DNA of 64,000 nucleotides from the IMG/VR virus record IMGVR_UViG_3300044670_002562; one strand, 5' to 3'. Shown here in pieces: positions 7,790 to 62,797 of this stretch. This DNA is from an uncultured virus (IMG/VR IMGVR_UViG_3300044670_002562) (Duplodnaviria; Heunggongvirae; Uroviricota; Caudoviricetes). How positions within the stretch are numbered: the stretch's first letter is position 1; each line of letters starts with the position of its first letter. The notes below the pieces were generated by a model. It ran no database searches. It was not told the DNA's origin and worked only from the letters and a program-made list of their open reading frames with translations. Position numbers and translations under genes: made by a program.

Positions 7790-7805
7790 TAGAATACGTA
7801 TGCTA
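7790..7805. promoter_or_regulatory. Copy of recurrent 16-bp palindrome (TAGAATACGTATGCTA)
   Basis: Fills the gap between two genes; matches six other copies in the window. Confidence 0.55.
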
Positions 7806-8231
7806 CGTCTTTTTCAGTCTGTGAGAGAGGTCCTCGGCGACAGCTCCCACTCCTGCGCCCGCAATCGCAGATAGGATATCTCTACGCAGCGATGGGGATT
7901 TGTTAAGCTTACCCCATAGGTTTGAGGATAATGAACCTATAGCAGCTCCTCCGGCAGCAGCTGTAGTTGTGTGCCGAAGCCGCTTCGTCTGTCTGGCGTG
8001 TTCTTCTAGAGCAGCGCGCTGCTTGTTCAAAGCCTGGAGCCCTTCCTCGTGGCGCGCAGCCTGTGTCTTGTTAGCGGAACGTGCTGTGACCAAGGGGACG
8101 CCTACCATCGCGGCCACGCTAACGAGATTCAACAGTGGCAGAAAAGGTGCCACTGCTGCTACTAGAGCCTCTTTTTCCAGCGTATATCCTTGCGCTGCAC
8201 CCTTAAAATATGATGCGCTTGTGCTAGGCAT
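7803..8231 (-). CDS. Glycine-zipper membrane protein, paralog 1
   Basis: Leader YFKGAAQGYTLEKEA, hydrophobic helix, C-terminal GKLNKSPSLRRDILSAIAGAGVGA. Confidence 0.7.
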   Translation of the reverse strand: MPSTSASYFKGAAQGYTLEKEALVAAVAPFLPLLNLVSVAAMVGVPLVTARSANKTQAARHEEGLQALNKQRAALEEHARQTKRLRHTTTAAAGGAAIGSLSSNLWGKLNKSPSLRRDILSAIAGAGVGAVAEDLSHRLKKT

Positions 8232-8820
8232 TAGAGGTATCTTTATTGTTAGCTACTGTTGCGTAGCCTGCTCCGGCTACCGCTCCTCCGAGGGCTGCTA
8301 TTAGGTCCCGAGCTAGGTCCGGCTTACCGGCCAGCTTGCCCCAGGCTGCAGAGGATATCCCGCCTAGCGCCGCTCCGCCTGTTCCGTAAAGCACCGGGTC
8401 CAAGGCTTCGTCTGAGCTTGTAGGTGCCTCTGCGGTAAGCTCAGGGTGTTTGCCGTAATCGACACTAGCGATACCGTCGTCCTCTGAGCCAGCAAGCGCT
8501 GTTCCGATAGCGGCTCCGCCGCCTCCCACGCCTAAGACCCCAAGCACTGTGGCGAGCGCTTTACCACCGCGAGGAATTCTCTTTAGAAGTTCTAAAGACT
8601 TGGCCCTGACGCCTGGTCTTGGAGCCTGTACTGTTTGAACCGGCCCTGTGGTACGAACCGGAGGACTTACAACCTTTACTATTTTTCTCGTTCGCGGTGG
8701 AGAAGCAGCGGGCGGGGTCTGTAGACCCCTGGACATTAATTGTTCCCACGCTGCATTTAGTGTCGCTTGAGGATTGGCTTCCTTAAGGAACTCTGATAGT
8801 AGATTATCCTGAGTATGCAT
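8224..8820 (-). CDS. Glycine-zipper membrane protein, paralog 2
   Basis: Leader ending FLKEA; C-terminal GKLAGKPDLARDLIAALGGAVAGA. Confidence 0.7.
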   Translation of the reverse strand: MHTQDNLLSEFLKEANPQATLNAAWEQLMSRGLQTPPAASPPRTRKIVKVVSPPVRTTGPVQTVQAPRPGVRAKSLELLKRIPRGGKALATVLGVLGVGGGGAAIGTALAGSEDDGIASVDYGKHPELTAEAPTSSDEALDPVLYGTGGAALGGISSAAWGKLAGKPDLARDLIAALGGAVAGAGYATVANNKDTSNA

Positions 8821-8836
8821 TATTCTATCTCCTAGA

Positions 8837-9292
8837 TTAGCTAGTTGAGCCTACGGCTGCGCCGATTGCGGTCCCGGTTAGGGCTGCGATTAGATCTCTT
8901 TGAAGGTTGGGCTTATCGGCGAGCTTACCGTACACGACAGACGCTAGGCCTCCTCCTGCTCCCCCTAGTGCTGCGAGGCTGGCTGTGCCTAGCGACTCTT
9001 CCGACTTGTCTGCTTCTGAGAAATCTACAGGCTCTTCCTCGGGTCGATCTAGTTTACCGGAATAGTTCACACCACCCCATATCGAAAAGGCGGGAACGGC
9101 AGCAACCCCAGCCGCCCGCGTTTTCGATATGTCGTCAAGAAAATCCCCGGTTTCTTTTGCGCCGCCGCGTATTGCCTTGGATCTCGTAAATTTTTTGATC
9201 CAGGCCCCTAGGCCTGCCTCTTTCTGCGTAAAGGTCTGGGGATTATTCGCGGCAGAATATGCTCGGTTAAGTAATTGCTCTGCTGGGGACAT
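8837..9292 (-). CDS. Glycine-zipper membrane protein, paralog 3
   Basis: Leader ending TQKEA; C-terminal GKLADKPNLQRDLIAALTGTAIGA. Confidence 0.7.
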   Translation of the reverse strand: MSPAEQLLNRAYSAANNPQTFTQKEAGLGAWIKKFTRSKAIRGGAKETGDFLDDISKTRAAGVAAVPAFSIWGGVNYSGKLDRPEEEPVDFSEADKSEESLGTASLAALGGAGGGLASVVYGKLADKPNLQRDLIAALTGTAIGAAVGSTS

Positions 9293-9317
9293 CTGTTATC
9301 TCCACATTAGTATAAGG

Positions 9318-10208
9318 CTAGAAGACTTCGTCGTACGCTATACCTTGTCGCCAACCTAGTGACGGGTTCGAGGTACCTTCTGGCGCCTCTGCCTCGGCCT
9401 GCTCTAAGGGTATAGTGTAAGCTATGTCTGTTCTGGGTAATAGTCGAAAGTCTGTAGGATAGTACACCAAAGGCACAAATCTAACATACGCGGCTACTCG
9501 GATACTGCGAACAACGAATCTCTTATTAGAGGACCCGTGTACCCATATATCGTACGTGTCTAATCGAGGGTAAGCGATACATCTTGCTTGGTAGGATTGA
9601 TTATCCTCCAAGGAGAACCCTTCCTTTACGTCTAAGCTACTGCCGCCTCCGGAGAGATCTACCCAGTATGGGATAGCGTCGTAGTATCCCTTCTGTATAC
9701 CTGTTCCGTAGCATGTCCCGCAAACTGATGAGACAGGTTCGTCTATGTCGTAGTCTACACAGTCTGTGCACTTCGCTCCGCACCATCTCCGCTTTAGGAG
9801 GTACCCTAGGCTACCGGCAGAGGTCTTCACCATCCGCAAGTACTCTTTACGGATGATGTCTCTAGAGAGTTTCTTATCTCTTAGCGGAATGTCTCCTAGA
9901 GTTGCTGCGGGCTTCGACGCGTACTCTCTGTCTCCGTCAAAGGCAATGACTCGATAGAAGATATCGCTCTTATACCCGCATCGCCGCTTATCTTCGTCCA
10001 GATATAGGCAAGCGTTGCAGATAGCGAAGTCTTTGTTAATGCGTTCCCACTCTCCGCCTGCTCGGCTCCATTCGACGTAGAAGATAGGCGTACGGGATCC
10101 GGAGAACTCGAACATAGGATTCAGCTCCCACTCTACGATCGTTTCGTCGGAGGGGGTAACGTAGGCTTCTACTCTACTAAATGTAAATATTTTGGCCGGC
10201 TTAGCCAT
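9318..10208 (-). CDS. Neck / head-closure protein with zinc finger (tentative)
   Basis: 296 aa with CTDC...CGTCYGTG motif; lies between capsid and tail genes. Confidence 0.5.
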   Translation of the reverse strand: MAKPAKIFTFSRVEAYVTPSDETIVEWELNPMFEFSGSRTPIFYVEWSRAGGEWERINKDFAICNACLYLDEDKRRCGYKSDIFYRVIAFDGDREYASKPAATLGDIPLRDKKLSRDIIRKEYLRMVKTSAGSLGYLLKRRWCGAKCTDCVDYDIDEPVSSVCGTCYGTGIQKGYYDAIPYWVDLSGGGSSLDVKEGFSLEDNQSYQARCIAYPRLDTYDIWVHGSSNKRFVVRSIRVAAYVRFVPLVYYPTDFRLLPRTDIAYTIPLEQAEAEAPEGTSNPSLGWRQGIAYDEVF

Positions 10209-10260
10209 ATCCTATCTTACCCTACTCTGTGAATCCCGATTGAGAGATAGTGCTATCTCC

Positions 10261-11172: not shown

Positions 11173-11176
11173 ATTT

Positions 11177-15087: not shown

Positions 15088-15573
15088 TTAGCGAGCCGGG
15101 AGGTTGTCAAAACACTGCTCGAATGCCCGATCCGACTCCCGCGATTGCGCAGAGGCAGATTCCTGACCTGTCGGTACAGCGTGTCCCAATTTAGGCATCT
15201 CCGCGCCCGCACTACCAGAATCAATGCGCTGATCCGCGAGCTTATCCAAAAAGGTAAGCAGCGAATTGGCAGCATCTTCCTGGATAGCTTGCAAGGCCTG
15301 CTGGCGACTACCCTCCTTGAGAAATCCTGCTTGGATAACCTTATCTACAGTGTCTTCAATTGCACTGTTAGTAAGGCTAGCCTGTTTATCCTGTCCGCTA
15401 TCGGCGCATGTGCTGCACTGATCGTAATCCTTTCCGCAGGAGCACTTGCCGTCAACGCTGGCGAGCTTCTCCTTCAGGTTACGGATTTCCGCGGACTGGT
15501 CTGAGATAATACTTTGCGTATCTGCGACATACGTAGCGATGTCGGCAGCCGCTTCTTTGGTTAGTTTAACCAT
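15088..15573 (-). CDS. Head assembly / scaffold-associated protein
   Basis: 161 aa coiled coil, several KxA motifs, CSC..CSTC insert. Confidence 0.55.
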   Translation of the reverse strand: MVKLTKEAAADIATYVADTQSIISDQSAEIRNLKEKLASVDGKCSCGKDYDQCSTCADSGQDKQASLTNSAIEDTVDKVIQAGFLKEGSRQQALQAIQEDAANSLLTFLDKLADQRIDSGSAGAEMPKLGHAVPTGQESASAQSRESDRAFEQCFDNLPAR

Positions 15574-15594: not shown

Positions 15595-15626
15595 GGAGTA
15601 TTTAGCATACGTATGCTAAATACTCC
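15595..15626. promoter_or_regulatory. Perfect 32-bp palindrome GGAGTATTTAGCATACGTATGCTAAATACTCC
   Basis: Exact reverse-complement symmetry checked base by base; lies in the gap between two head genes; contains the recurrent 16-bp core. Confidence 0.7.
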
Positions 15627-16573
15627 TATTCAGCAGCTGGTGCGGCTGCCTCATCTCCAGTATTCTCCAAAACCTCGGTCATAACTTCGGCCAACTCGTC
15701 TGGACTAACACCAGCTTCCTGGAGTGCTTGGACATCTTCCACGGCTTGTGCGAGTTCTTCGGCAGTAACGCCGGCCTCATCGAGAGCGGAGACGAGTGCT
15801 TCAACAGTAGCGTCGTCGCCCTCTACCGGGGCTTCACCCTCTACCACATCTGCGATGGGAGCAGCCTCTTCAGGAGCTGCGCCGGCCTCCTCGGGGAGAA
15901 TAGCGTCTGGGAATTCCATAGCAACCTTATCGAGGATGCCGGAGATACCGCCAGCTTTCTTGATGAGGCCTGCGTCGATCTGATTCTCTTCACAGGCGGC
16001 GCGGAGATCTTGTTCGTCCTTAGCACGCTTAAGCATACCGTAGAGGTACCCTTCGTAATACTCCTGAGCGGCATCAGCAGCCTGCGCGGCCAGCTTATCG
16101 AGAGCAGCCTGCTCTCCGCTAACCGGAGCGGCCGACTCGGAGGCAGCCTTATACAGGACCTCGAGGATAGCGTTACCGAGGTTCTCGGCACGAGCGACCT
16201 TCTGTTCGCTGTTAATCTCGGTATTCTTTACCGGGCCGATATTTCCTTTCTGCTCAACAGGATCATCAGTGGTAAGGGTCTGGGTGCCTTGCGTGTCGGC
16301 AAAGGTATTGCCGGCGCCCTCTTTGTTATCGGGAGCGGAGCTAACCGTGGATCCAGAATCATTAGCAGCCTGCGTCTGTTCGACGCCGAGGTTGGTCTGA
16401 TCTGTGGGGAGTTCCTTCTCCTTCATCTGTTCCTGGGGCTTGGCGGCGGTGGTGTCCTTAAAGGAACCGTCGGCGGCTTGCTTCAGGGTGGCTTCTTTCT
16501 GGGCTTGGGCCCGAACAGGCTCCAAGAACGTGTTGATCAAGGACAGGCTGTCCTGAATGCTGCGATTACTCAT
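15626..16573 (-). CDS. Scaffold-like acidic protein
   Basis: 315 aa, Ala/Glu-rich, at least seven KxA motifs, between protease and capsid genes. Confidence 0.6.
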   Translation of the reverse strand: MSNRSIQDSLSLINTFLEPVRAQAQKEATLKQAADGSFKDTTAAKPQEQMKEKELPTDQTNLGVEQTQAANDSGSTVSSAPDNKEGAGNTFADTQGTQTLTTDDPVEQKGNIGPVKNTEINSEQKVARAENLGNAILEVLYKAASESAAPVSGEQAALDKLAAQAADAAQEYYEGYLYGMLKRAKDEQDLRAACEENQIDAGLIKKAGGISGILDKVAMEFPDAILPEEAGAAPEEAAPIADVVEGEAPVEGDDATVEALVSALDEAGVTAEELAQAVEDVQALQEAGVSPDELAEVMTEVLENTGDEAAAPAAE

Positions 16574-16592: not shown

Positions 16593-18053
16593 TTAGGATT
16601 TGGCTTGGTTATGGACTACGACGCGGTGTGCGTACTTGTCTGCCCCGATGCCAGCCAGAAGTGAGATTTGATATTTCGCATATTCTTGCGACAAAACTCT
16701 CGACTCAGCACTCATTGTCGGCTCAACAAACATACTTGCCCGCTTTTGCTGCGGAGGACCGCCTTGGATAACTACAAGTGTTATCCTACGACGAACCGGG
16801 TCATCTTCAATCGAAAAACTTGGTTTTATATCGTTAGCCAAGTCTTCCAACTCTCTCCAATAGTTAGGAGAGAGCGGAGTATAACTTGAATCCGATATAG
16901 CATCTGCCGAAGATCCCATCATAGGAGGGTGTCCGCACCCTGTCTCTGAGAAGGCATTTCGCATGCCTGCGCACATACCCTTAACCGCAGGGATCTGCGA
17001 CTTATCTTTCCTCAAGACTACCTGTGCGAAGGACTCCGGAGGGAGTAGAATCTTATGATTAGAGAGGCACCCCAGTACATCCTCGAGAGGAAACTCTTGG
17101 AGGCGTTTGATAATCTCTGGAGGAAGTTCCTTATCTGAGAATGCTAGAGCGAGGTCTGACTCCTCGGGAGTAAGCCCTCTTGCGATGACCTTCTTCTCTA
17201 TCTCGGCGAGCTTAGCCAAGGCGTGCGCATTGTTACGCTCTGCCTCTGTCCCTACTTTATTGATAAGGGACAAGGGGAGGAGCATATTAGGTGCGGTGTC
17301 CTCGCCTGGGCCTCCTCCCGCGCTGGCGACCTTAGCCAAAGCAAATGCGATCCGATCTGCAGGGACTACTACTTCCGATATGTCGTGGAAGTGCGGCCGA
17401 TCGTTTATTGCATAGACCTGATGGCCTTCTTTAGTGATCCCCAGCTTATTGTACTTCAGGTGATCGCAATAGGTGGCGCGTGTCTTAGCCTCGTTACCGC
17501 ATACTGAGCAGATATCAAAAGGTACTCCGCATCCCATAGAGAATAGTACAGGCTTATCCGATGCCAGCTTATTCAGAGAGTCGGCCCACATATCGTTATC
17601 GAGGCGGATAACCAGCTCGCCTCTATGCATTGCAGGGTTACAGGCCTCCAAGACAATGTCTCCGAGAGATGTAGCTCCTTTTCTGGAATTGTGGTGCTCT
17701 CTATATACCCCTCCGTACTTACTAAATGTACTGTGGTACTTAGTGAGACCTCCCTCTAGCTTCTTCTGGTACTCTCGGCCTGTTTTATGATGCTTCGGGA
17801 TAGTTACGGTGCCTTCCTTCTCGTTGAAGAAGTCTGCGTTGTTATTAGGGCCGTAGAACTCCCCAGCTCCTGTTGTGATGAGGTGCACGAAGCTCTTGCC
17901 CTTCTCAGGCCTGATATCCATCTGCATGACGTACTCGGATGCGGCGATCTTTGACATCTGCATCTTATCTACTCCTCGACTATGCACATCGATAAGATGT
18001 GCAGTCGGGCGATCCTGGAACCAGCTGGATGGGTGTATCGTCTTAGGTATCAT
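16593..18053 (-). CDS. Prohead maturation protease (tentative)
   Basis: NNNADFF...YREH..., FSMGCGVPFDICSVCGN...YCDH zinc insert, FHDISEVVVPAD: pattern of herpes/HK97-type phage head proteases. Confidence 0.7.
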   Translation of the reverse strand: MIPKTIHPSSWFQDRPTAHLIDVHSRGVDKMQMSKIAASEYVMQMDIRPEKGKSFVHLITTGAGEFYGPNNNADFFNEKEGTVTIPKHHKTGREYQKKLEGGLTKYHSTFSKYGGVYREHHNSRKGATSLGDIVLEACNPAMHRGELVIRLDNDMWADSLNKLASDKPVLFSMGCGVPFDICSVCGNEAKTRATYCDHLKYNKLGITKEGHQVYAINDRPHFHDISEVVVPADRIAFALAKVASAGGGPGEDTAPNMLLPLSLINKVGTEAERNNAHALAKLAEIEKKVIARGLTPEESDLALAFSDKELPPEIIKRLQEFPLEDVLGCLSNHKILLPPESFAQVVLRKDKSQIPAVKGMCAGMRNAFSETGCGHPPMMGSSADAISDSSYTPLSPNYWRELEDLANDIKPSFSIEDDPVRRRITLVVIQGGPPQQKRASMFVEPTMSAESRVLSQEYAKYQISLLAGIGADKYAHRVVVHNQAKS

Positions 18054-18057: not shown

Positions 18058-19548
18058 TTAGACTTTGGGAGGGGGGGAGCCCTTATCCTTATTCTTATCC
18101 TTATCCTTATTCTTATTAGGAATAACTGCGCCTACTAGACTCCCTATTGCATCACCTGCCGATTGTGCTACAGGCTTAAGCCCTGTATTGATAGGTATAG
18201 GAGTCGGCCTCTCCGGCTTCTGCGCCTCCAGCCTTTCTCTATGCGCCATCTCTCTGTCTTCTCGTAGAACATCGCTCTCACGAAGCCGTTTAGAGATATC
18301 CGCTTCTTGCTGTAGCTCGAACGTATCTTTAAGGCCTGATGACTGTAGGTTCTTAATCATCAGGTTACTGAGGATATCGGGCTTATTGTACGCTTCTGGG
18401 ATAGTGCTAACTGCTGAGTTATATGCCTTTAAGAGCTCGGCATGGTTGTATGCCCTCAGCTCCGGGTGATACAGTGACAAAAGCAGGAAGGTTCTCTTTG
18501 CCTCTTGTCCCTTCAGCTCGTTGAACTGATCTGCGTCGAGCATCTCTTCCTCGATGGATTTAACATGCTTCCGGGCAGACATGGCGTCTACGATCTTATC
18601 TGAGGACACCCCTGCCCCTGCCAGGAAATTAGCTAGAGCGTTGGCTGCGAAGTTTGACCCAAACTCCCCTCCGGCTGCCTCTTTCTCCGCGAATAGGGAC
18701 AGCTCTACTTCAGCCTTAGACATATTCTCGGCCGCTGTATACAGCCTATTGATGGTGACGTAGGGCTCTTGTGTAGGGAAGCAAACGCAGTTCGCTGTCT
18801 TAGACATCTCTGGAAAAGATACGCGTGCCTTGTGCTCTATAATATCGAGCAGCCCTTTACCGGTAGTGGGATATCCGTTAACGATATACTGCGCTACTTT
18901 GCGCAGTCCTCTAGGAGTAAGCGGAGCCAGGTGGGCGCACACATCCTCCAAGGCGCGCTCGAACCCCATCTTATGGAACTGTATCCTCATGCGCAGCTCT
19001 TCTCGAAGCCTCTGCGTGACTGCTTTCTTCTCCAAGCAGGCTTGCTGCAGGAGGCGGCTGCATGTGGCCTCCATCTCTGGCGATAGCTCCTTATCTGTAG
19101 CGGGAGGTGTCCGCAGGTGCTCGGAGGCGGTCTTGGCGAATGCTGTTAGGCTAGACGCTTCGCTAGTTTGAATGTGAGCGGCGTGTGCGGTCTCCCTGAT
19201 CTCTTCCTTAGAGAATGAGGGCAGCGCGAACGAAGATGCTGTCTTCTCTGTGGGCACATAGATGGATCGTAGGATCTCCTGTGTGTCTGCCAGGTCGAAG
19301 GGGCGGGCGCGCTCTTCTTGAGATGCCGACTTAAAGACGTGCACTGACTTGGACTTATTGAAGGCCTCTACCATGCGGCTGATCTTCTCCGGTCCGTATT
19401 TCTTATCCGATGCTACTTTAGCGATCGCAGTGTTCGGTGACAGTCCACTATGGGTAAGTCCTATGGACTGCTCAATCGCACTAACTAATTCGTTCTCTTC
19501 TCTAGGCGAGAGCATTTTCATGTAACGTATTCTCCAAATGTGGAACAT
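18058..19548 (-). CDS. Hypothetical head-module protein with multiple KxA motifs
   Basis: 496 aa (start may be the downstream MKML); KVAS, KSAS, KTAS x2, KTAN, KEAA; KDKDKN tail. Confidence 0.7.
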   Translation of the reverse strand: MFHIWRIRYMKMLSPREENELVSAIEQSIGLTHSGLSPNTAIAKVASDKKYGPEKISRMVEAFNKSKSVHVFKSASQEERARPFDLADTQEILRSIYVPTEKTASSFALPSFSKEEIRETAHAAHIQTSEASSLTAFAKTASEHLRTPPATDKELSPEMEATCSRLLQQACLEKKAVTQRLREELRMRIQFHKMGFERALEDVCAHLAPLTPRGLRKVAQYIVNGYPTTGKGLLDIIEHKARVSFPEMSKTANCVCFPTQEPYVTINRLYTAAENMSKAEVELSLFAEKEAAGGEFGSNFAANALANFLAGAGVSSDKIVDAMSARKHVKSIEEEMLDADQFNELKGQEAKRTFLLLSLYHPELRAYNHAELLKAYNSAVSTIPEAYNKPDILSNLMIKNLQSSGLKDTFELQQEADISKRLRESDVLREDREMAHRERLEAQKPERPTPIPINTGLKPVAQSAGDAIGSLVGAVIPNKNKDKDKNKDKGSPPPKV

Positions 19549-19579: not shown

Positions 19580-20500
19580 TTATTTATCTAAAACTCGTTT
19601 TGAGAGTTCTGCGTTAGGCTTAAAATGGGGAGATATCCCCGGCTCGTAGAAAGTTCTAGCCTCTTTTACCAGGGCCGGGATGCTTGGATCCATAAGTGCC
19701 TGCTCTAGGGACTCTAAGACACTGCGCCCGGTCTCCTCTGTAAGGGAGCCAGTGCCTAGAAGAGTTTTAGCCGCCGCGGAGTTCTGCATATTCCAATGCC
19801 GATCTGCGTGGTCTAGTACGGCTAGAGCATCCTGTCTATACATATTACGCAGGCTGGATGTAAGGTTAAATTCGCCGTATGCTCGTCTGAAAGAGCTTAT
19901 GTCTCTGAACCACGACTTTATAGTATCTGGCAGGAGGCCGCCGGCCCGGAAAGCGACAAACTCTCTGAACGCGCCCAGTCCTTGTGTATACGCAATGACC
20001 TTCCATGTAAAGTCGCAATCTGTTGAGGTATGCGTTTTGGTTAAGGCCTGGGCAAGCACGCTGCACAGTACGTTGGCCTTACGGTGTCTATAGTGATCGA
20101 TATCGAAGTACACTTTGCGGTACATCTCTATAGTCTTCTCGCCGTGTAGGGGTTGAAACTCTGCTGCGATCTCTGCGTTTGTAGCATCAGTCATCAGCAT
20201 AGCCTCTACAAGCCACCTATACCCTCCATTATCACCTGCATGCAGGTGAATCATAAAGGCCTCGTGCATAGTCGGATATTTAGAGATATACTCGGGATTG
20301 CGCTCTACGATCTCTTGCCGGCTCCGGTAAAACTCGCACGCAGTAACTAGATGCGTATCTCCAGCTCGGCGCGCTTCCCGGATCTCCTTCTCTGCTGTTA
20401 TAAGAGAACTGTCTACGAAACACCGCATGGCGATAGTCCACCGCCAATTAGGTGCTCGTAGATAGGATGGGATCTGGGCTTGGTGCCGAACCAGATGCAT
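19580..20500 (-). CDS. Hypothetical protein
   Basis: 306 aa ORF translationally coupled (TAATG overlap) to the upstream gene. Confidence 0.75.
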   Translation of the reverse strand: MHLVRHQAQIPSYLRAPNWRWTIAMRCFVDSSLITAEKEIREARRAGDTHLVTACEFYRSRQEIVERNPEYISKYPTMHEAFMIHLHAGDNGGYRWLVEAMLMTDATNAEIAAEFQPLHGEKTIEMYRKVYFDIDHYRHRKANVLCSVLAQALTKTHTSTDCDFTWKVIAYTQGLGAFREFVAFRAGGLLPDTIKSWFRDISSFRRAYGEFNLTSSLRNMYRQDALAVLDHADRHWNMQNSAAAKTLLGTGSLTEETGRSVLESLEQALMDPSIPALVKEARTFYEPGISPHFKPNAELSKRVLDK

Positions 20501-22704
20501 TATACCGCGATATCCTCAGAGAGTGATCCAAAAATATCTTCCGAGAACGTCGGATTATAGGACGTCTTTTCTCGGAGGAAGAGTACTAGGTCCCCGGTCT
20601 TCTTGAAGACGTTAGTGAGGGTGTCTTCCAGCTTTGTGAGGTCCTCCTTGCCGTAACGAGCCTCAAACTCGTCATTATGCCAGTAGAACAGGAACAGCAT
20701 ACGTCCGACTTTATCCATGCCTACTACCATATCTGATATATAGTCCTTACGGATCTCCGAGATATCGGCCTTGTCGATTAGTCCTTGGAGAATGCGGACG
20801 TCAAAAACCTCCTTAATCCCCTGCTCTGCGGCTTGCGTCGCTTGTTCGATAACTGCCCCGGGTAAGACGGGAGAATTATCGGACGCAGACGGCGTGGTGA
20901 GAGACTTGCCCTCTAGGGTGCTGACCTCTTCGGTTACTGCCTCTTCTTGGGAGGTAGAGGGTCCGCCCATCCACGGAGGCTCCGAATATCCGTAAGCCGC
21001 GGTATCGTAGGGCGCTGCGTGCTTAATGAGATATCCTTTATACGCATGAGGAGACGCTTCTGCCTCTTTCAGGATCTGTAGTGCCTGTCCTCCGCCTATA
21101 CCGTGTCGCCAGATGAGGTGCTTAGCTGCGGCCTCTTTTGAGATAAGCCCTGTGGACTGCTCCCCGAACAAGACCTGAGCGTTAAACTCTGTGCTGTGTA
21201 CGCGGAGATGGCGGAGATTGGCCTGCTTATGGATGACTTGGTGCAGCACCGTCGAGGAGTCCCCTAATGATACTTCTCGAGGGGTGTGTTGTTTAGGATA
21301 TGCGGGAGTGCGGCCGTCGAACAGCGTGCGGCGAGTAAATACTCGGGTTCCCTCGGGCACGAATAGATAGCCTGTCTCAAGGCGAAGTTGGGCCTCTGGT
21401 CCGACGAACTCTACCCGCACTACACTACGGTCAGTGCCGCCTTCGAACGACAAATGTCCGTCCGTATAGCCGGCACTGTTGCGGACCGTAACGGAGAAGG
21501 ACCCGTCTGGGTTGCCCTCTCTGTTGATGATGCGTGTAGCGATAGAGTTCTCTGGATTCTGAACAAATAAAACACCTGTGTCTCTGTTGAGTCCTGCCAA
21601 GAGCGTACGAGACGCCTTCTTTCCCCCTTGGATACCGGCCATCTCGTCTGCTGTCACGCTTGTGGCCGGCTTACAGTATACATCAGATGACCGCTTACTT
21701 GTATAGCTCTGCGGATTGTCGATATCCACTAGGCATACTTGGCGATTCTCCGACGAGCGGAATCGGCGCGATGTGATCGACGTATCTGAGATGTGTTTCG
21801 GGAGAAAGATAATAAAGGTTTTGAACGAGCCGTCTGAGAGCAGCACATCGTATAGACCGGGAGAGGTCGGATTCTGCAGGACAGAGCTATCTACCTCCTC
21901 CTGGAAGATCTTAGACAGGGTAGTTCTATTGTCCTTAACGTAGATGCCGTTACGTACCAGTAGTTCTTTTTCTCTATCTCCGAGATCCTTCGCCTCTTTA
22001 GAGGTCATATCGGATATAATGACGACATCATCCTTCGTGGGCTTATTGGGCGTAGCTGCTGAGAACGCTGCGGATTTGGCCATAGATGACACTTGACCTA
22101 CGTCGTAGAAAGAGAATAGAGAGTTACTGAATTCCGGACTGTTGAGAAACGTCTCCAGGAACGCACGAGACGCTGCTTTCCCTAGCTTGGGGATATCCGA
22201 CATAAGATCGATCGGGGAGAAGTTGGTTGCATTAAGTGCGGCGAGCTTTGTCTTCATCCGCAGCCACGTGCTCTCTGTAATAATAGCGTTATCGTCGAAC
22301 GCGGCCTCCTTACCCAGCGAACTGTACCCCTCGTCCAAGATCTGAGTATTTTCTGGGGACGCCTTCTCGATGTTCTCATCGCCGGCTAGCTCGGACTTTC
22401 CGATAGCCTTAGTTCCCTGTTCCTTGATAGACGAAATCCAGTTATCTAGTGCCGGAACAAAGATATCCTTCTGCTTAACGTAGATTAGGTCTAGTCCTTT
22501 AATGTTTCCTTTTAGAAAGAATACAGGGATATATAGCCATAGGTTATTCACAACAAAGGCTGCGACGCCTACTGCTTTCGTGTCATCCTCCGTCTTATCG
22601 ATGACTTGAAACCCTACTCGGTGCTCTACCAATGACGGCAGCTTCTCGCTGATCTGGGAATCGGCTAGCTGTCCAAATTTATGCTCAAAGCTGACGTCGG
22701 CCAT
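20500..22704 (-). CDS. Hypothetical head-module protein with multiple KxA motifs
   Basis: 734 aa ORF with RBS; KEAA, KLAA, KAAS, KSAA, KQAN, KHAA. Confidence 0.75.
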   Translation of the reverse strand: MADVSFEHKFGQLADSQISEKLPSLVEHRVGFQVIDKTEDDTKAVGVAAFVVNNLWLYIPVFFLKGNIKGLDLIYVKQKDIFVPALDNWISSIKEQGTKAIGKSELAGDENIEKASPENTQILDEGYSSLGKEAAFDDNAIITESTWLRMKTKLAALNATNFSPIDLMSDIPKLGKAASRAFLETFLNSPEFSNSLFSFYDVGQVSSMAKSAAFSAATPNKPTKDDVVIISDMTSKEAKDLGDREKELLVRNGIYVKDNRTTLSKIFQEEVDSSVLQNPTSPGLYDVLLSDGSFKTFIIFLPKHISDTSITSRRFRSSENRQVCLVDIDNPQSYTSKRSSDVYCKPATSVTADEMAGIQGGKKASRTLLAGLNRDTGVLFVQNPENSIATRIINREGNPDGSFSVTVRNSAGYTDGHLSFEGGTDRSVVRVEFVGPEAQLRLETGYLFVPEGTRVFTRRTLFDGRTPAYPKQHTPREVSLGDSSTVLHQVIHKQANLRHLRVHSTEFNAQVLFGEQSTGLISKEAAAKHLIWRHGIGGGQALQILKEAEASPHAYKGYLIKHAAPYDTAAYGYSEPPWMGGPSTSQEEAVTEEVSTLEGKSLTTPSASDNSPVLPGAVIEQATQAAEQGIKEVFDVRILQGLIDKADISEIRKDYISDMVVGMDKVGRMLFLFYWHNDEFEARYGKEDLTKLEDTLTNVFKKTGDLVLFLREKTSYNPTFSEDIFGSLSEDIAV

Positions 22705-25031: not shown

Positions 25032-25633
25032 TACTTTCTACTGGCGAGCCATGACCCTATAATAGGAACTGAGCTTATTCTTCTTGTCCAAGTGTCTGAC
25101 TCCTCGGAGCTTGACGCATTGTCGCGGAACCTGTTCGCGAGCTCTAGAAGCTTAGCTTTTTTTGTAGGATTTGCCTCTGCCTTAGCCGCTTGTTCAAATA
25201 ACTGCCCTCGGAGGCGCTGCGCCGCCAAAAGCCTAAGATTCCCTACTCTAGGCCGAGCTTCTCTGCGAGTTTCAGGAGTATCCGGTCCTTTTAGGACTGG
25301 GTGCAAGGACGATGCAAAATCTTTTTCCTCTTCAGAGATCTCCGATGAGGGGTTCGCCAGCACATAACTTTTATATTCACCTAGCGAATCAAAGTCTTGG
25401 CGACGCCCTTTCATTAGCTCTCCTGCTGCAAGCCCCGCGCCTGCTCCTAAGCCTCCTCCGATTAGATACTTGTTAAAAGTTCTGTCGGACTCTGGGACTA
25501 GCTTACGCGTCAGAGCTACCCCGATGACAGCGCCTATTGGCGTTGTTATAAGTGACGGATTAATTGGGTCCTTCATTTTTTTAGCGCTACTCCGCGTATT
25601 GCCCCAGAGCTCTGAGGACTTGGATGAGTGCAT
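25031..25633 (-). CDS. Glycine-zipper membrane protein
   Basis: IGAVIGVAL and IGGGLGAGAGLAAG helices; coupled to the beta'-C gene. Confidence 0.65.
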   Translation of the reverse strand: MHSSKSSELWGNTRSSAKKMKDPINPSLITTPIGAVIGVALTRKLVPESDRTFNKYLIGGGLGAGAGLAAGELMKGRRQDFDSLGEYKSYVLANPSSEISEEEKDFASSLHPVLKGPDTPETRREARPRVGNLRLLAAQRLRGQLFEQAAKAEANPTKKAKLLELANRFRDNASSSEESDTWTRRISSVPIIGSWLASRK

Positions 25634-26399
25634 TATCCTGGTCGGCGGCCTCTAGCTGCTGAGGCATACTTGCCGGAGACATGGGCATGCCTTGCTCTGG
25701 CAGGGGAGGCAGCTCCTCCGGCAGCGGCATAGCGCTCGGCATAGGCACGGTGCTGAGTGACTCGTCGGTCAAATTTGCTACACTAGGCGGGAGAGCAGCC
25801 TCGCCATCCGGCACAGTCTCTGGAACTGCTACCCCCATCGTGTTCGCCATCTGCACAAGCAGGGCCTCTAGCTCATCGATGCGAGATTCCAGCTCCTTAT
25901 TAGTAACTCGAGACGACTCGGTATCCTCGCTAGGCTTTGCTTGTTCGGCAGGGGCCTGGGCTGCAGCGGCTGCTTCGATAAGCATCTGGAGATCTTGGGC
26001 AGATAGGGTAACGGGCTGCATTTCCATTCCGGCCATTCCGGCGGCGGGAGGCATACCGGCCATGCTAGGATCCATAGGAGGCATACCGGCCATGCTAGGA
26101 TCCATAGGATCCATAGGAGGCATAGGAGGCATACCGGCCATGCTAGGATCCATAGGAGGCATAGGAGGCATACCGGCCATGCTAGGATCCATAGGAGGCA
26201 TAGGAGGCATACCGGCCATGCTAGGATCCATAGGAGGCATACCGGCCATGCTAGGATCCATAGGAGGCGCAGCAGCGCCTGCCAGAGCAGGATCTTGAGC
26301 AGGAGCAGTCGCTCCTAGTTGCCCCGGCGAAAGAGTAGGTGGAGTGTACGCTTCCTTGGTAAGGTTGAGTACTTTATTTAACAAGTCTTTATCAATCAT
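25587..26399 (-). CDS. Pro/Met-rich low-complexity protein with short coiled coil
   Basis: Leader ending TKEA; PPMDPSMAGM repeats; ELESRIDELEALL coil. Confidence 0.7.
   Translation of the reverse strand: MIDKDLLNKVLNLTKEAYTPPTLSPGQLGATAPAQDPALAGAAAPPMDPSMAGMPPMDPSMAGMPPMPPMDPSMAGMPPMPPMDPSMAGMPPMPPMDPMDPSMAGMPPMDPSMAGMPPAAGMAGMEMQPVTLSAQDLQMLIEAAAAAQAPAEQAKPSEDTESSRVTNKELESRIDELEALLVQMANTMGVAVPETVPDGEAALPPSVANLTDESLSTVPMPSAMPLPEELPPLPEQGMPMSPASMPQQLEAADQDNALIQVLRALGQYAE
26047..26268. repeat. Coding tandem repeat, six nucleotide-identical copies of CCGGCCATGCTAGGATCCATA (DPSMAGM) with 9-nt PPM sub-repeats
   Basis: Directly visible in-frame 30/39/48-nt units. Confidence 0.9.
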
Positions 26400-26431: not shown

Positions 26432-26989
26432 TTAAACGGGCTGATGTCGAGTGTTCAAGTACCCTGCAAAAAATCCTCTAGTTTTCGAATCTTGCTGATA
26501 AGAGGCGCACTTCCACTTTCTGCGGGCTTTGCATATTCTTTTATCCGGAGTTCTGGAGCAATCTATGCTATGCATCTTTCTTTGGCCATCCGAGCGGGCG
26601 CAAAAACTTTTACGCCTCTTAGAGGCTTTACCTCCTTTCTTAACTTTACCACTAACGGGGGCCTTTAAATTACTTCCAGGGTTCTGTCTTTCATAAGACT
26701 TTCTACCTTTCTCGTTAAGGCCTCCTTCGCTATTCTGACCTTCTCGCCTAGTCCAAGCCGCGTTTTTTTTCTTTTTAGCTGCCTCTTTACATAGATTTAG
26801 AATACGTATTCTAAAATCTGTGCGATCCGAAGCTTCTTTTGCCACAGATGTTGCGTATTCTTTTAGTTTTGCCTCTGACATACTGTCTGCTATCTCCTTT
26901 ACTTTTTTGGAAGCGTCGGGATTGTTTCCCCGTTTATACGCCAGCGCAGCTCCGAATAGGCGCTGCTGTGCTGTAGAGGCGGCTGGCAC
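26432..26989 (-). CDS. Basic two-module protein (DUF3008-like plus DUF6321-like modules)
   Basis: MPAASTAQQRLFG...LKEYAT module, then AAWTRREG..GGLNEKGRKSY..RRKSFCAR..RRKWKC module, separated by two KEA motifs; family names recalled, not searched. Confidence 0.65.
   Translation of the reverse strand: MPAASTAQQRLFGAALAYKRGNNPDASKKVKEIADSMSEAKLKEYATSVAKEASDRTDFRIRILNLCKEAAKKKKNAAWTRREGQNSEGGLNEKGRKSYERQNPGSNLKAPVSGKVKKGGKASKRRKSFCARSDGQRKMHSIDCSRTPDKRICKARRKWKCASYQQDSKTRGFFAGYLNTRHQPV
26796..26815. promoter_or_regulatory. Perfect 20-bp palindrome TTTAGAATACGTATTCTAAA (recurrent motif, intragenic copy)
   Basis: Exact symmetry; contains the 16-bp core. Confidence 0.5.
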
Positions 26990-37946: not shown

Positions 37947-39650
37947 TTACTGCTTACCCCGAGCGTTCCAGAGACCCTTTCTCGCGCTTTCCAAGTCATA
38001 ATCGCGAATCGGTCCTACCGGCCGATATTCCCGTAATAGCTCCTTAATTTTATCTGTTCGCTTTTCGGGCGTTGTAGTAGTCGCAGGAGTAGGAGTAGTC
38101 TCAGGAGCAGGAATAGCTAGATTCCTTAGTTCCTCCCTACTCTGCTGTGCCAGTGCCTTGCTCGCGGTAATAGGGTTCGAGTCGCTAGCGGCCCAGCCAG
38201 CGTTCAAAATTCTACCTAGAGCAGTATTACTAGTAGAGGAATTAGTAGCTGCAGTAGTAGCAGCAGCAGCAGGAGCAGCAGCAGCAGCAGCAGGAGGAGC
38301 AGCAGCAGCAGTAGTAGTAGTACTAGAGGAATTAGTAGCTGCAGGAGGCGCAGCAGCAGTAGTACTAGTAGAGGAATTAGTAGCTGTGGGCTTTGCATCC
38401 TGTGCGACTGGAGGAGTAGCTGCAGGAGCAGTAGCAGCAGCAGCAGCAGCAGGAGTAGTAGCAGGAGTAGGAGCAGCTACAGGATTAACGAGTAACTTAT
38501 TTAGACTTGGTTGAGCCCAGTCGGGCACTTCTTCGCTTAAAGGGCCGTCAAACCAGGCGGGTCCTGCGTCTTCTCCTACCGTAAACCCGGCGGCGGAGCC
38601 GGCTGCCTTTGCTCTCTCAGCTAGATTACTCTCTATTTCACTAAGCTTCTTTGCTCTTTCTGTTAGAGAAGCTATTTCTTGATTCATGCTAGGATCATCT
38701 ATAACTCTGATCGTTTCTATTCTATTTTTGACGTTCTCTAATTCTGACTGGTTGATTGAGCGAATATGGGCTGTGGCTTGTATTGCTTTTTTCTGATCGT
38801 CGCTGAGAGATATATTACCCTGTGCTGCCACAGAAATAGCTTCTTTAAGGGCTTCCGTAGATGCGTTGTCTGCTTCATACAGTGCTGAGTCTTGTCTAAA
38901 TTGTTCTAAGTTTTGTTCAGCATTATAGCCAAGGATCTGTAGCGTCCTGAGGCCTTCATATTTTGCAGTAGCATTAACATTTTCGCCGTTCTTTAGCTGG
39001 CCTGAAATTCTATCCGCTAGTTCGTCTTTATACTTACTAGGCAGATTGTTTGCTTTGACTAGTAGGTCTAATTGAGTGCTCACACCAATGTCCGCTGGTG
39101 AGTCTGTCATGGATTTAATTTTTTTAGCGAGCGCTTCTCCTTCTGGCGTTTTTTGTCCGTCTACGGTGAGCAGATTTTTGATTGCTTGCGTGTTTCTTGT
39201 AGCCAGTGCGTCTTGAGAGTAGCTCATAGCTTCTTCTACACCTACTCCAAACTTAGACATAATGTACAAAGCAATAGTGCCTATCACAGAGCCTGCCAGC
39301 ATTCCTTTGCCGCCTCCTAGTAGGCCTCCCAATATAGCTCCTATAGGAATACCTGCTGCGGCCATAGCTAGTTCGGATTTAGTTCTGTCGCTAGCTACGC
39401 CAAAGGCTGTGTTCTTCAGCAGAGTGTCCCCGGAGTACATTAGCAAAGCATTTATCTGGTCTAATTTATATCCTTGGCTTTCGCCGACATTGTACAATTG
39501 CTGAATGTCGTTAGGCCGGAGAACGCCTAGACTCCTCTCTGGGTCGTAGGTAGGCTCCTCCGCTTTTTTTTGCAAAGCTTGCCCGGACCATTCGGAAAAG
39601 AAATCTACAGCATTGTCTTTGTTTAATCTATGGCTATTAATTTTTATCAT
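37947..39650 (-). CDS. Glycine-zipper, coiled-coil and Ala/Thr-rich protein
   Basis: Leader ending QKKAE; GIPIGAILGGLLGGGKGMLAG; low-complexity C-terminal region. Confidence 0.75.
   Translation of the reverse strand: MIKINSHRLNKDNAVDFFSEWSGQALQKKAEEPTYDPERSLGVLRPNDIQQLYNVGESQGYKLDQINALLMYSGDTLLKNTAFGVASDRTKSELAMAAAGIPIGAILGGLLGGGKGMLAGSVIGTIALYIMSKFGVGVEEAMSYSQDALATRNTQAIKNLLTVDGQKTPEGEALAKKIKSMTDSPADIGVSTQLDLLVKANNLPSKYKDELADRISGQLKNGENVNATAKYEGLRTLQILGYNAEQNLEQFRQDSALYEADNASTEALKEAISVAAQGNISLSDDQKKAIQATAHIRSINQSELENVKNRIETIRVIDDPSMNQEIASLTERAKKLSEIESNLAERAKAAGSAAGFTVGEDAGPAWFDGPLSEEVPDWAQPSLNKLLVNPVAAPTPATTPAAAAAATAPAATPPVAQDAKPTATNSSTSTTAAAPPAATNSSSTTTTAAAAPPAAAAAAPAAAATTAATNSSTSNTALGRILNAGWAASDSNPITASKALAQQSREELRNLAIPAPETTPTPATTTTPEKRTDKIKELLREYRPVGPIRDYDLESARKGLWNARGKQ
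38221..38480. repeat. Low-complexity GCA/GTA repeat with three ATNSS(S/T)T units
   Basis: Repeated AGAGGAATTAGTAGCTG blocks and GCA triplet runs. Confidence 0.85.
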
Positions 39651-43843: not shown

Positions 43844-44248
43844 TCAGATTAGAATAGAGTGCCCAGGTATCTGTCTCTCTACTTTCTTTGGTTTTGGCGT
43901 TGGCTGTTTGCCCTGCTGTCGTCGGAAGTTTTCTCTAATTTGCTCAGGAGTATTAGCCTCTCCCTCTTTTTTATTTGGGGTAGCTTTCCCTCTTGTCATT
44001 CCTTTTGGTTTAGAGGCATTAGGGCCTGTGGTTTTGGAGGGCATTAGGGCCTTTATATCTTCAGCACTAAGGCCTTTAGATTTATTAGATCTAGCAAACG
44101 GAGGACGTCCCCTCCAATTAAACCGCTTAGCTCTAGTAGATGGGTCAGACTTAAATAGGCGGTCGATATTAAAGATTGGGTCAGCTGCGGTTTTCACTAG
44201 CTCGGAGCTATCGGCAGTGTATCCGTCATAAAAGGCTGCGGTATTCAT
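43844..44248 (-). CDS. Small very basic protein with FYDGY...KTA leader
   Basis: Start likely ATG 44248 (MNTAAFYDGY...LVKTAAD); Lys/Arg/Pro-rich remainder. Confidence 0.6.
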   Translation of the reverse strand: MNTAAFYDGYTADSSELVKTAADPIFNIDRLFKSDPSTRAKRFNWRGRPPFARSNKSKGLSAEDIKALMPSKTTGPNASKPKGMTRGKATPNKKEGEANTPEQIRENFRRQQGKQPTPKPKKVERQIPGHSILI

Positions 44249-57243: not shown

Positions 57244-57350
57244 ACTATTGTCCTCCTAGGTTGAGCTAGCTTCTAAACTTAATTCCGGCGAGGATAAGCC
57301 CGATATTATTATCTTTGTGTCGCATGACTCTCGGGCCTCTTCAGGTAGCG

Positions 57351-57545: not shown

Positions 57546-57772
57546 TGGTTATGCCTGCGGTCCCACTTCTCCAATGCATCCGCGCGATTATTGCCGGTTT
57601 GGGCTACAGCGCACTGATAGTTTGAGCAGCGGAATTCGTATGCATTCACCGCGCCAATCATAATTGCAGAATGGCGCTCTATCGCGTCAGCGCCGCAAAA
57701 AGGGCATGGTCTCGCACAACCCTCCGGTGCAGCTAATTCGCTATCGCTCATGACTGACCTCGGCGATATCAC
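57542..57772 (-). CDS. Lar-family (restriction alleviation)-like zinc-ribbon protein
   Basis: RPCPFCG...CSNYQC...ALEKWDRR. Confidence 0.65.
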   Translation of the reverse strand: MISPRSVMSDSELAAPEGCARPCPFCGADAIERHSAIMIGAVNAYEFRCSNYQCAVAQTGNNRADALEKWDRRHNQ

Positions 57773-61516: not shown

Positions 61517-61688
61517 GCCTATGCCTTTTCTTAGTTGGGTCGCTCTCTCGGATCTCTATAGAGGCGAATCGCACATCACAGGATGTGCAATGGCGTTCCC
61601 TAAGAACCTTGCAGTCTCCTTTCTCGGAGTACGCTGCTGTGCTGAGGACCTTGGTCCGTTGTCCACAATCTCTACACTTCATATGTAT

Positions 61689-61871
61689 TCACGTTGAAAT
61701 AGCACACGTATTCTGATTCTCTTTCAGAGCCTTGTCAACTACTGTAGGTACGTGTAAGTCCTCCGACACATCCAGGGGATTTACGATAGTCGGGCCGTGA
61801 GGCTTCTCCATCAAGGCGTCGGCCTTCTCCTCTTTAGCTATAGCTGAGCTATCTTTGTCTGCGGTATCCAT
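61689..61871 (-). CDS. Small hypothetical protein
   Basis: 60 aa with GGAGG RBS. Confidence 0.5.
   Translation of the reverse strand: MDTADKDSSAIAKEEKADALMEKPHGPTIVNPLDVSEDLHVPTVVDKALKENQNTCAIST
61700..61715. promoter_or_regulatory. Copy of recurrent palindrome (TAGCACACGTATTCTG)
   Basis: About 190 nt upstream of the first gene of the glycan cluster. Confidence 0.5.
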
Positions 61872-61941
61872 ATACCCTCCACATATTCTGTATATATGCA
61901 GTAACGGTATAGTATATCTCTAGCAGATCAACTTAGACTAT

Positions 61942-61981
61942 AAAAAAAAAGCCCCCATCCCCCCTGCAGAGGGAATGGAGG
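61942..61981 (-). terminator. Intrinsic terminator
   Basis: Minus-strand stem CCUCCAUUCCC/GGGGAUGGGGG (G-U pairs work on this strand only) followed by U9. Confidence 0.75.
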
Positions 61982-62082
61982 ACTGGGAGGCGCTGGTCGG
62001 CTGACACACACAAACAACAACAACCGCGCTCTCTGGGAGTACGTAAACTTAACCTGGTATTCTCATTATGTTCATCCTATAC

Positions 62083-62148
62083 AAAAAAAAAACCTCCTAC
62101 TAGGGTGTCGCAGAGGGGAGGCAGTGCGGACAGGATCCTAGTAGGAGG
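62083..62148 (-). terminator. Long-hairpin intrinsic terminator
   Basis: 12-bp stem CCTCCTACTAGG/CCTAGTAGGAGG with an inner stem, followed by U10 on the minus strand. Confidence 0.75.
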
Positions 62149-62221
62149 ATTCGGGAGAAAAGGGCCCGATGTTTTCGGTTTATCTATGCTATATAGACTC
62201 CTACTCGCAAGGGGCTGATTG

Positions 62222-62797
62222 TTACGCCATCATGGCCTTCATCTTATTGCGCTGAGCAAGGCCCTGGATCAAAGCACCCAGAGAAGCTCCGCCGACACCC
62301 ATGCCGACGGCCTTGCCCAGGTTAACCCCTTCACCCTTTCGTGCGTCACCTGCCAAGGAAAGTCCTACACCGGTCGCGCCTCCGATCGTTGCGCCGGGAG
62401 CAAGGGACGTCAGGATCTTCCTAATAGCCTCTCTGTTATCCCGAGCTGCAGGGGCTTCCGGAACGTCTGCTTCATACAGTGGAAGCTGCATAGGATCGAC
62501 GCTAAGGTCGTCTTTTACCGGATCTATCTTCTTCACTTCCTGGCCCATGGTAAGGGAAGGAGTGCTCCACGGATCAGCGTCGTCGGTCGTCTCCGCAGGT
62601 TCACTCGGACCCAGTTTAAGTTTCGGTACGCCGCCGAAGAGATTCTCGTTACTGAGAGCTCCACTCCCTACTTGACTGAGGGAAGCTGACGTGGGCTGGG
62701 TGTCGACGCCGTCAGTGCGGGCTGCCTGCTTGTGGAGGTAGCCGAGTTGGAAGCCTTGAGCGGGAATGCTGTCTGATGCGAATGTCTGGGTGGACAT
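62222..62797 (-). CDS. Glycine-zipper protein with GFQLGY-KQA leader
   Basis: QGFQLGYLHKQAA; LAPGATIGGATGVGLSL...GVGGASLGALIQ. Confidence 0.75.
   Translation of the reverse strand: MSTQTFASDSIPAQGFQLGYLHKQAARTDGVDTQPTSASLSQVGSGALSNENLFGGVPKLKLGPSEPAETTDDADPWSTPSLTMGQEVKKIDPVKDDLSVDPMQLPLYEADVPEAPAARDNREAIRKILTSLAPGATIGGATGVGLSLAGDARKGEGVNLGKAVGMGVGGASLGALIQGLAQRNKMKAMMA

Follow-up and report, generated by a model that had tools for sequence, protein, structure and literature searches.

The 64,000 nucleotides analysed here (the window) are the first 64 kb of a 75,208-base record of an uncultured Caudoviricetes virus (IMG/VR IMGVR_UViG_3300044670_002562), whose genes lie almost all on the minus strand and which includes in this part tail and neck genes, a head cluster, two intein-bearing RNA polymerase (RNAP) chains, a portal-like gene and a block of sugar enzymes. 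The best explanation we have for the protein motifs in it, with a probability of about 0.6 for both parts together, is that the phage's head protease reads the triplet Lys-x-Ala (KxA) and that a separate N-terminal segment of the form aromatic-x-x-Gly-Tyr (the GY leader) serves as a loading tag for head cargo. Taken alone, cleavage after Lys-x-Ala by the head protease is highly probable; that the GY segment loads cargo is a little better than an even bet. A KxA-specific protease and a GY-containing leader had been proposed in a sequence-only reading of the window, all of whose named genes are present on the minus strand and are designated here, as there, by their low coordinate (e.g., 7803 or 36068). 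From that proposal, sequence and model support a KxA-reading protease and a leader resembling the T4 capsid targeting sequence (CTS), the former because of its fold match to T4 gp21, the confinement of the motif to head-interior proteins and leader ends, and its conservation on both flanks of the protease's own catalytic domain; the GY signal did not extend to the whole lineage.

In line with the earlier claim, KxA is pervasive in the head proteins: 20500, 18058, 16593, 15626 and 15088 hold 38 copies against 15.8 expected from 2,000 within-protein shuffles (p≤0.0005), and the extended form hydrophobic-x-K-x-A occurs 24 times in the same five against 3.8 expected, with control patterns at or below chance (RxA 3 vs 9.0, KxxA 14 vs 15.6, AxK 9 vs 15.8). 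The comparison of head with tail and enzyme genes that had been suggested came out accordingly, with no excess in the tail and neck genes (7 vs 7.6) or the enzyme block (27 vs 25.8); by shuffles, neither the RNAP chains (11 vs 16.3) nor the portal-like 39647 (1 vs 2.6) are enriched. The putative sheath (4285-7053, a homologue of gp236 of Salmonella phage Arash) and tube (3748-4269), so named in the sequence-only reading, had been described as inconspicuous and have 0 copies each. When 2,000 gapped residue pairs were scanned without bias, KxA (42 vs 18.5, p=2e-6) was the top-ranked pair of the head cluster, none of the Glu-type maturation motifs LxE, IxE and AxE was among the top 8, and the same scan of N-termini placed YxxxY, GY and KxA within the top four. 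The signal is local, since genome-wide KxA counts are flat and uninformative (ratio 0.94-1.26 in 16 genomes), and in the 11 proteins to which leaders had been ascribed it lies in N-terminal position and context, as their whole-protein counts do not exceed chance expectation (11 vs 10.0; 15 vs 13.6).

A profile search with the protease yielded 275 matching stretches in the viral collection, from which 78 loci were retained, and the comparisons below cover 16 genomes: the present contig (G000), 14 whole records out of 26 checked, and Arash. Arash and the Vibrio phages D69, D148 and D181 are the cultured relatives indicated alike by major capsid protein (MCP), protease and RNAP, and gene order is similar between the window and Arash or D69. 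Four head-interior families lead the list of KxA enrichment, one at 105 vs 28.5 and the others being those of 15626, 18058 and 20500 (Table 1), and the portal family, which contains the annotated portal gp204 of Arash, is flat (44 vs 48.0 over 15 genomes). The richest of the four, represented by G001 44387-45445 and by members in eight other genomes, is encoded well away from the head cluster and has no member on the present contig; Arash gp242 looks similar to it.

KxA pairs in head and cargo proteins are also preserved in orthologues, 56 of 65 in G001 and 83 of 139 in farther genomes, where other K..A spacings in these proteins are kept at 34-47% and 10-27%, respectively; KxA in other genes stays at this control level (30/57 and 12/60), and the site in 41515 is not preserved in G001, which has KVS there. 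We built a site profile from other genomes only, using 284 internal sites from 26 of their proteins. On the contig it picks out 32 sites, spread over 23 genes, among them 10 of the 11 ascribed leaders (8837 fell under the cut-off), and no site in RNAP, sheath, tube or sugar enzymes. Because a profile of internal sites recovers these leaders, leader ends and core-protein sites represent one motif. It prefers L (3.1x), F (2.8x), M (2.7x) or I (2.2x) two residues before K, E/T/V/Q between K and A, and A/S/E after A (A 1.9x, S 2.6x). Among cultured phages, gp220 (10 KxA vs 3.0 expected), gp222, gp223, gp225 and gp242 of Arash and gp268, gp270, gp271 and gp273 of D69 are KxA-rich and the tail genes of both are not; phage G has KxA in gp19, gp7, gp11 and gp21 and none in its MCP, whose solved chain comprises 280 of 282 residues.

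Within the head cluster, the protease gene is situated upstream of the scaffold and MCP genes. Its AlphaFold model, made with 100 homologues, has a predicted local distance difference test (pLDDT) score of 87.9, and the top VIA-align match among 48,161 chains is T4 gp21 (5JBL; Z 9.0, root-mean-square deviation 3.1, 139 residues aligned), with further matches to the proteases of varicella-zoster virus (VZV, Z 6.8), human cytomegalovirus (HCMV, 5.1) as well as Kaposi sarcoma-associated herpesvirus (KSHV, 4.2), the alignments ending at model residue 244; Foldseek with the full model gave no match, and by sequence the protease profile found no solved relative. The protein is homologous to phage G gp19 and to the 'prohead protease' gp77 of Rhodococcus phage E3. 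His120 and Ser172, invariant in the 100 homologues and in 19 distant rows of the alignment, are the presumed catalytic residues; His107 and Asp224 are also invariant in the 100 homologues, herpesvirus assemblin having a Ser-His-His triad. Predicted cleavage sites stand on both sides of the catalytic domain (Table 1), and the distant rows that have them include Arash, D69 and Bacillus phage G gp19; the E3 protease lacks both. In the model, a low-confidence linker (241-257) adjoins K241-V-A243, and the residue after A243 is S. Protease orthologues of ∼860 residues in G001 (94489-97080) and G013 (147211-149805) have an insertion directly after the catalytic S-M-G, probably an intein, as similar long homologues match LAGLIDADG/Hint.

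The MCP, which had no Pfam match, does carry the N-terminal QKTAQ pointed out earlier, at K26, and KxA occupies the same column in 9 of 12 full-length rows, two others having K-x-S and one an earlier KxA. Membership of the mReC RNAP-encoding Caudovirales was considered and rejected on the same protein, as the available part of PMC7481178 gives PF07068 as the mReC criterion. Position and composition suggest a scaffold role for 15626, and 18058 resembles Arash gp220 + gp221 in position and by eye. Within the putative scaffold, residues ∼170-184 (YYEGYLYGMLKRA) hold an internal YYEGYLYG segment that resembles a cargo leader and is loosely conserved in five genomes; the cargo leader may imitate it. 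Between gp225 and gp226 of Arash (∼10200-10680 of the Arash locus L006) we found an open frame outside the GenBank table, in the same place as the decoration-like gene 14429-15040 of the window, which is probably the Gp225.1 of the Arash paper.

Strict [F/Y]xxGY occurs in the first 26 residues of 9 of the 68 contig genes of at least 100 residues, against 0.28 expected. Five of these are among the six genes originally credited with a GY leader (the sixth, 7803, reads Y-x-x-G-x-x-x-G-Y instead), one is 35147, where no KxA follows, and 64029, 65228 and 67119 lie just past the window; these last three (64029-68411) have compact leaders, 64029 and 65228 being the products of a recent duplication. 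In its compact form the leader is M-x-K-x-A-[FY]-x-x-G-Y-[ML]-x-K-x-A, and in the window leaders 2 to 13 residues separate GY from K. The five further leaders described as ending in KxA (8224, 8837, 25587, 33944 and 37947) are of unequal quality, 33944 and 37947 being weak; the 33944 site is in frame in G001 only, farther orthologues being without it. Not all of the proteins behind the leaders turned out to be otherwise unrelated: 7803, 8224 and 8837 have a common C-terminal segment, as do 62222 and 63472. In G001 orthologues, KxA is at the same place in nine of ten compared, often with a changed middle residue, and GY is present in all six; no G001 orthologue of 8224 was called, and that of 37947 has KWA at 20, plus YKAGY...KTA further in. 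The leader of 25587 is followed by many PPMDPSMAGM repeats. At the N-terminus of 36503-37003, AAQGALRGY resembles the leader GY with no KxA after it, and the same is seen in G001.

Across the relatives, the GY leader is a sub-clade dialect and not a lineage-wide signal. N-terminal [FY]xxG[YF] is enriched in G000 (9 vs 0.6), G003 (16 vs 2.6), G005 (12 vs 2.4) and G013 (7 vs 1.7), and weakly in G001 (5 vs 1.7); the GY genomes fall together in one region of the portal tree, which does not resolve G003 and G012. Other shared KxA-ended leaders were seen by eye, among the matches listed, for example in G008 (MNxKAYL[IFL]KxA) and G018/G019 (AFxDELxKIA). A six-frame search of 11 genomes, independent of gene calls, returned 41 cassettes, 36 of which lie at most 14 residues from a start codon; two of the rest are internal or tandem copies and three are likely chance. 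Leader codon identity is above chance in G003 (144/197 vs 89), a sign of recent copying, and at chance in G005 (160/361 vs 148) and G013 (35/72 vs 32), so that there the peptide and not the DNA is kept. A scan of the collection with the cassette matched 44 stretches, compared with 5 when a reordered control was used. Of 30 distinct matches, 13 carry a Met, absent from the pattern, two positions ahead of the first Lys; the remaining 17 resemble chance hits. Matches were also found in five of 20 further records (control 1). Only 1 of 28 cassette-scan records matched the protease, most of these records being 3-30% fragments.

The cargo appears modular. Four relatives (G002, G013, G005 and G003) have the 36068 domain fused, as the C-terminal half of a single protein whose joint is a KxA, and it is free-standing in G000 and G001, behind a GY leader that ends at KxA; orthologues of 35703 carry differing leaders, one of them without GY. 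In the G001 orthologues of 64029 and 67119 the whole cassette is internal; one of the two copies has a Met of its own and, upstream, a sequence like a ribosome site, as would result from loss of a stop codon. In three T4-like cyanophages the triplet ahead of DUF6321 is x-x-E and neighbouring genes start with T4-type leaders; here it is KEA. With three phages vs two, a switch of flanks between the codes is a lead only.

GY-leader proteins are mostly found in one genome each. They are frequently net basic (24/37 vs 745/2,431 others) and rich in glycine zippers (18/37 vs 181/2,431), and show no excess of strong hydrophobic segments (4/37 vs 334/2,431). Their description as injected effectors was not borne out: no effector domain was found in the 11 window leader proteins, and in a Pfam scan of 80 leader proteins from relatives, made up of 73 out of 133 candidates and 7 additions, five had matches (two DUF5661, one GNAT and two below the curated cut-off), none identifying an effector. 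The single-sequence fold of 62222 is of low confidence (pLDDT 52.7), with Atlas matches <0.9. Once inside, the cargo would most likely act as DNA-binding filler or be ejected as a membrane-associating protein.

Virion data exist for Arash. In the available part of its proteomics (PMC10585845), 7 of the 63 proteins that are well detected have a strong N-terminal site, compared with 3 of the 172 detected weakly or not at all (p=0.004), a count that uses 115 of 116 rows of a noisy table, leaves out gp225.1, assigns one row by assumption and concerns a phage without the GY dialect. Arash gp97 and gp100 are well detected though encoded outside the structural module. We found no peptide lists in the gene-feature sheet of the Arash supplement or in 8 supplement files on phage G, the parts of these sources at hand.

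The mechanism we favour would begin with the T4-gp21-fold protease 16593-18053 cutting after Ala in hydrophobic-x-Lys-x-Ala. The aromatic-x-x-Gly-Tyr leader would be a separate tag that loads small, fast-changing proteins into the prohead, and the same protease would then remove it from the loaded cargo. By analogy with T4, SPN3US and the herpesviruses, many-site core proteins would be fragmented and removed, ∼28 residues would be trimmed from the capsid protein, a cut at K241-V-A243 would release the protease's own catalytic domain, and fused cargo modules would come apart at their KxA joints. Loading by GY is the weaker part, suggested by the variable distance to KxA in the window, by the presence of GY on a domain when this is a separate gene, and by the T4 leader, which also separates targeting from processing.

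Several observations weigh against this mechanism. KxA sites are predicted to be helical, and a cut at K35 would nick the fold, because strands 16-30 before the site align with T4 gp21. A third copy, K162-L-A164, sits within the catalytic domain; it is present in 79 of the 100 close homologues and lost in distant rows, and since a cut there is unlikely, not every KxA would be a cleavage site. N-terminal [FY]xxG[YF] is absent from G008, G010 and G012 and not significant in G002, G015-G025 and Arash, and several gene starts were placed by hand with the motif already known. In the Arash virion, as far as the available data go, a strong N-terminal site is lacking from 56 of the 63 well-detected proteins, RNAP, sigma factor and helicase among them, and major cargo such as RNAP is without the KxA code. 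At face value, the coverage in Table 2 of that study leaves no room for a removed MCP propeptide: the 41 missing MCP residues, which we had considered as such a propeptide, equal one over-long tryptic peptide (237-277), and gp221, gp223 and gp242 reach 100%. This coverage looks saturated by weak matches, because proteins with 2-3 unique peptides reach the theoretical maximum; it cannot test cleavage, and at face value speaks mildly against it.

The closest known system is that of T4 gp21 and the CTS (IPI-III, gp22, gp67, gp68), with which the present one would share the protease fold, core proteins rich in sites, a capsid protein with a single N-terminal site, and a short common leader on small, basic and poorly conserved proteins that ends in the core-site motif and is predicted to be cleaved there. 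The T4 CTS has 10 residues, of which positions 4 and 7 serve targeting and 8 and 10 processing, and the T4 protease cuts after L/I-x-E, P3 and P1 being fixed and P2 free (according to the part of PMC9026906 available). Unlike this, the motif here is hydrophobic-x-K-x-A, the leader is 13-30 residues long, with variable spacing and dialect shifts between sub-clades, and it differs in sequence from the T4-like leaders of the three cyanophages (MKSYNEFISE, MKSFQDFLQE, MKSFNQFLSE); the roles measured in T4 are predicted here from sequence and model. The phiKZ gp175 and SPN3US gp245 systems likewise belong to large myoviruses with a virion RNAP, and in Arash, as there, most virion proteins have no site. 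For SPN3US, the available portion of PMC10052503 describes an A-x-E motif with Ser preferred next, a C-terminal propeptide on the protease, and N-terminal propeptides on some head proteins, ∼80% being uncut; unlike here, where the portal is not enriched, the portal is processed there, and the RNAP and capsid families differ. In the herpesviruses (VZV, HCMV, KSHV and pseudorabies virus pUL26N), assemblin resembles our protease in that K241-V-A243 is placed as its release site, which in pseudorabies virus follows an Ala just behind the protease domain, with YLQA-T and VQA-S as likely sites (PMC4498786, in part); the fold match is weaker than that to T4 gp21, Lys instead of a hydrophobic residue stands two before Ala, and assemblin has no cargo-leader system. 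Arash, D69/D148/D181 and phage G (gp19) have the same protease family and KxA-rich head genes, Arash and D69 also the gene order and RNAP; Arash lacks a significant GY leader and phage G an MCP site. The Arash texts and phage G papers (PMC12484599, PMC8570332), in the parts available, do not describe head-protein processing, and no KxA code is described in the literature searched, with few subscription papers, on KxA- or Ala-specific phage proteases, DUF6321, DUF3008 and DUF5661. The system would have a T4 gp21/CTS-like logic with a different code, outside the Glu-specific system; as tagging, loading and cutting is already the logic of T4, the surprise is limited.

We consider it unlikely that KxA is the protease site and GY an extended docking element, or an ordinary propeptide, with no role in cargo choice. 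The fixed distance between GY and KxA in the compact cassette would fit such an element, as would the differing leaders of 35703 orthologues and the fact that most Arash virion proteins, in the data available, need no leader; however, the spacing varies in the window leaders, GY occurs without a subsequent KxA in 35147, in the 36503 variant and at the C-terminus of 26432, core proteins have strong sites without GY, and the targeting residues of the T4 leader are distinct from its processing residues. As to register, Lys at P3, a free P2, Ala at P1 and a small P1' is the probable arrangement. It is improbable that the cut falls after Lys (hydrophobic-x-K, then x-A), which would be the T4 I/L-x-E rule with reversed charge and would change the register only. 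The HK97 protease cleaves after Lys, and the hydrophobic preference two residues before K recalls P3 in T4, but with a Lys register Ala would have to be invariant at P2' and P1' both large and variable, the fixed positions in T4 and SPN3US are P3 and P1, P2 being free, SPN3US prefers Ser at P1', and the likely assemblin sites of pseudorabies virus fit K-x-A followed by A/S.

It is quite improbable that prohead-core proteins use KxA, uncut, as a helical motif for binding or assembly. Its predicted helicity, the copy conserved inside the catalytic domain of close relatives and the Arash coverage that, taken at face value, spans KxA sites all agree with such a motif. Against it, KxA sits where domains border (flanking the protease domain, closing the MCP N-arm, at fusion joints and in module linkers), a small residue is preferred after Ala, the helical RNAP and sheath show no enrichment, and the DUF6321 module is found after x-x-E in Glu-type phages and after KEA here (three vs two phages). 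Finally, we find it hardly credible that the pattern stems from composition, helix periodicity, a DNA-level element or biased start choice. The motif was indeed chosen post hoc on this window, with starts set by hand, and G003 leader codons are alike above chance, but held-out genomes, shuffles, spacing controls, the six-frame search and the chance-level codon identity in G005 and G013 counter an artefact. Just as little credit goes to the permuted papain-like C92 peptidase (12087-12677), the second peptidase of the window, encoded downstream of the capsid gene: we rejected it as the responsible enzyme because its family, found in 3 of the 16 genomes only, cannot explain a lineage-wide motif.

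Table 1. Coordinates of leaders, head proteins, predicted cleavage sites and context genes in the window
Feature	Position	Strand	Basis or remark
Variant leader Y-x-x-G-x-x-x-G-Y, K20-E-A22, of gene 7803-8231	8166..8231	-	G001 orthologue has same form + KEA
Genes 8224-8820 and 8837-9292, KxA-ended leaders (K13, K24), without GY	8224..9292	-	8837 below profile cut-off
MCP, 324 residues	13436..14410	-	28% identical to Arash gp226 MCP
Predicted 28-residue MCP propeptide ending K26-T-A28	14327-14410	-	KxA position
Putative core protein, 4 KxA	15088..15573	-	KxA counts
Acidic putative scaffold/core protein, 8 KxA	15626..16573	-	Family 42 vs 18.4 KxA over 5 genomes
Prohead protease, 486 residues	16593..18053	-	Catalytic domain ∼16-243 with Cys-rich insert, then helical C-terminal part
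Predicted release site K241-V-A243, directly after catalytic domain	17325..17333	-	100/100 homologues; 17/19 distant rows
Predicted N-terminal self-processing site K35-I-A37	17943..17951	-	KxA in 94/100 homologues; 18/19 distant rows, one shifted
Putative core protein, 8 KxA	18058..19521	-	Family 86 vs 41.5 KxA over 8 genomes
Putative head-interior protein, 734 residues, 11 KxA	20500..22704	-	Family 118 vs 52.7 KxA over 11 genomes
RNAP chains	28228-33936 (beta + N-part of beta') and 22761-25031 (C-part of beta')	-	Context, outside the code; no KxA enrichment
Pro/Met-repeat protein, KxA-ended leader (K15), then Y/F-x-P-P/Q	25587..26399	-	Site in G001, G002, G012 and G013 matches
DUF3008 + DUF6321 protein, two KEA in linker, GY segment at C-terminus	26432..26989	-	Outside the list of the sequence-only reading
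Weak case, KxA at residue 11 depends on chosen start	33944..35038	-	Alternative start 34987
GY leader F10-x-x-G-Y, K26-T-A28, of gene 35703-36071	35988..36071	-	Motif, profile, orthologues
GY leader Y10-x-x-G-Y, K28-A-A30, of gene 36068-36502	36413..36502	-	Motif + fusions in relatives
GY leader Y12-x-x-G-Y, K23-E-A25, of gene 37000-37938	37864..37938	-	G001: GY + KEA in frame upstream of called start
Weak case, KKA at residue 28; Ala/Pro-rich, glycine-zipper-rich protein	37947..39650	-	Site not at that place in G001
GY leader F6-x-x-G-Y, K19-T-A21, of gene 43844-44248	44186..44248	-	G001: GY + K-V-A; basic body
Compact GY leader F16-x-x-G-Y, K23-Q-A25, of gene 62222-62797	62723..62797	-	Kept in G001; glycine-zipper-rich body

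Among the context genes, both RNAP chains carry intein signatures, and their Arash counterparts are among the top virion proteins in the available proteomics. The sugar-enzyme block (44925-61516) encodes a mannosyltransferase, a DXD glycosyltransferase, a methyltransferase, a cytidylyltransferase, SIS, GT29-like and dehydroquinate-synthase-like proteins, two short-chain dehydrogenases/reductases, and RmlD-like and GT9 proteins, and likely serves to glycosylate the virion or the host surface.

A far wider interpretation, which we hold to be doubtful, is that Arash, D69 and phage G mark a wide, undescribed myovirus branch with an Ala-cutting, herpes-like protease and, within that branch, a leader cassette spread by copy and paste (ribosome site and Met, then an aromatic-x-x-GY helix and KxA) that brings 10-20 orphan proteins, specific to each genome, into the capsid to be delivered to the host, with modules swapping flanks between KxA and the T4 Glu codes and with a cargo that could be read from sequence and programmed. 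The measured T4-type phage head proteases in the sources available all cut after Glu, and a KxA code would shift the family toward the Ala-cutting herpesvirus enzymes. The code can be tested directly in cultured Arash, D69 and phage G and, if true, would make it possible in a large uncultured lineage (275 stretches) to predict mature virion proteins, and head cargo, among its orphan genes.

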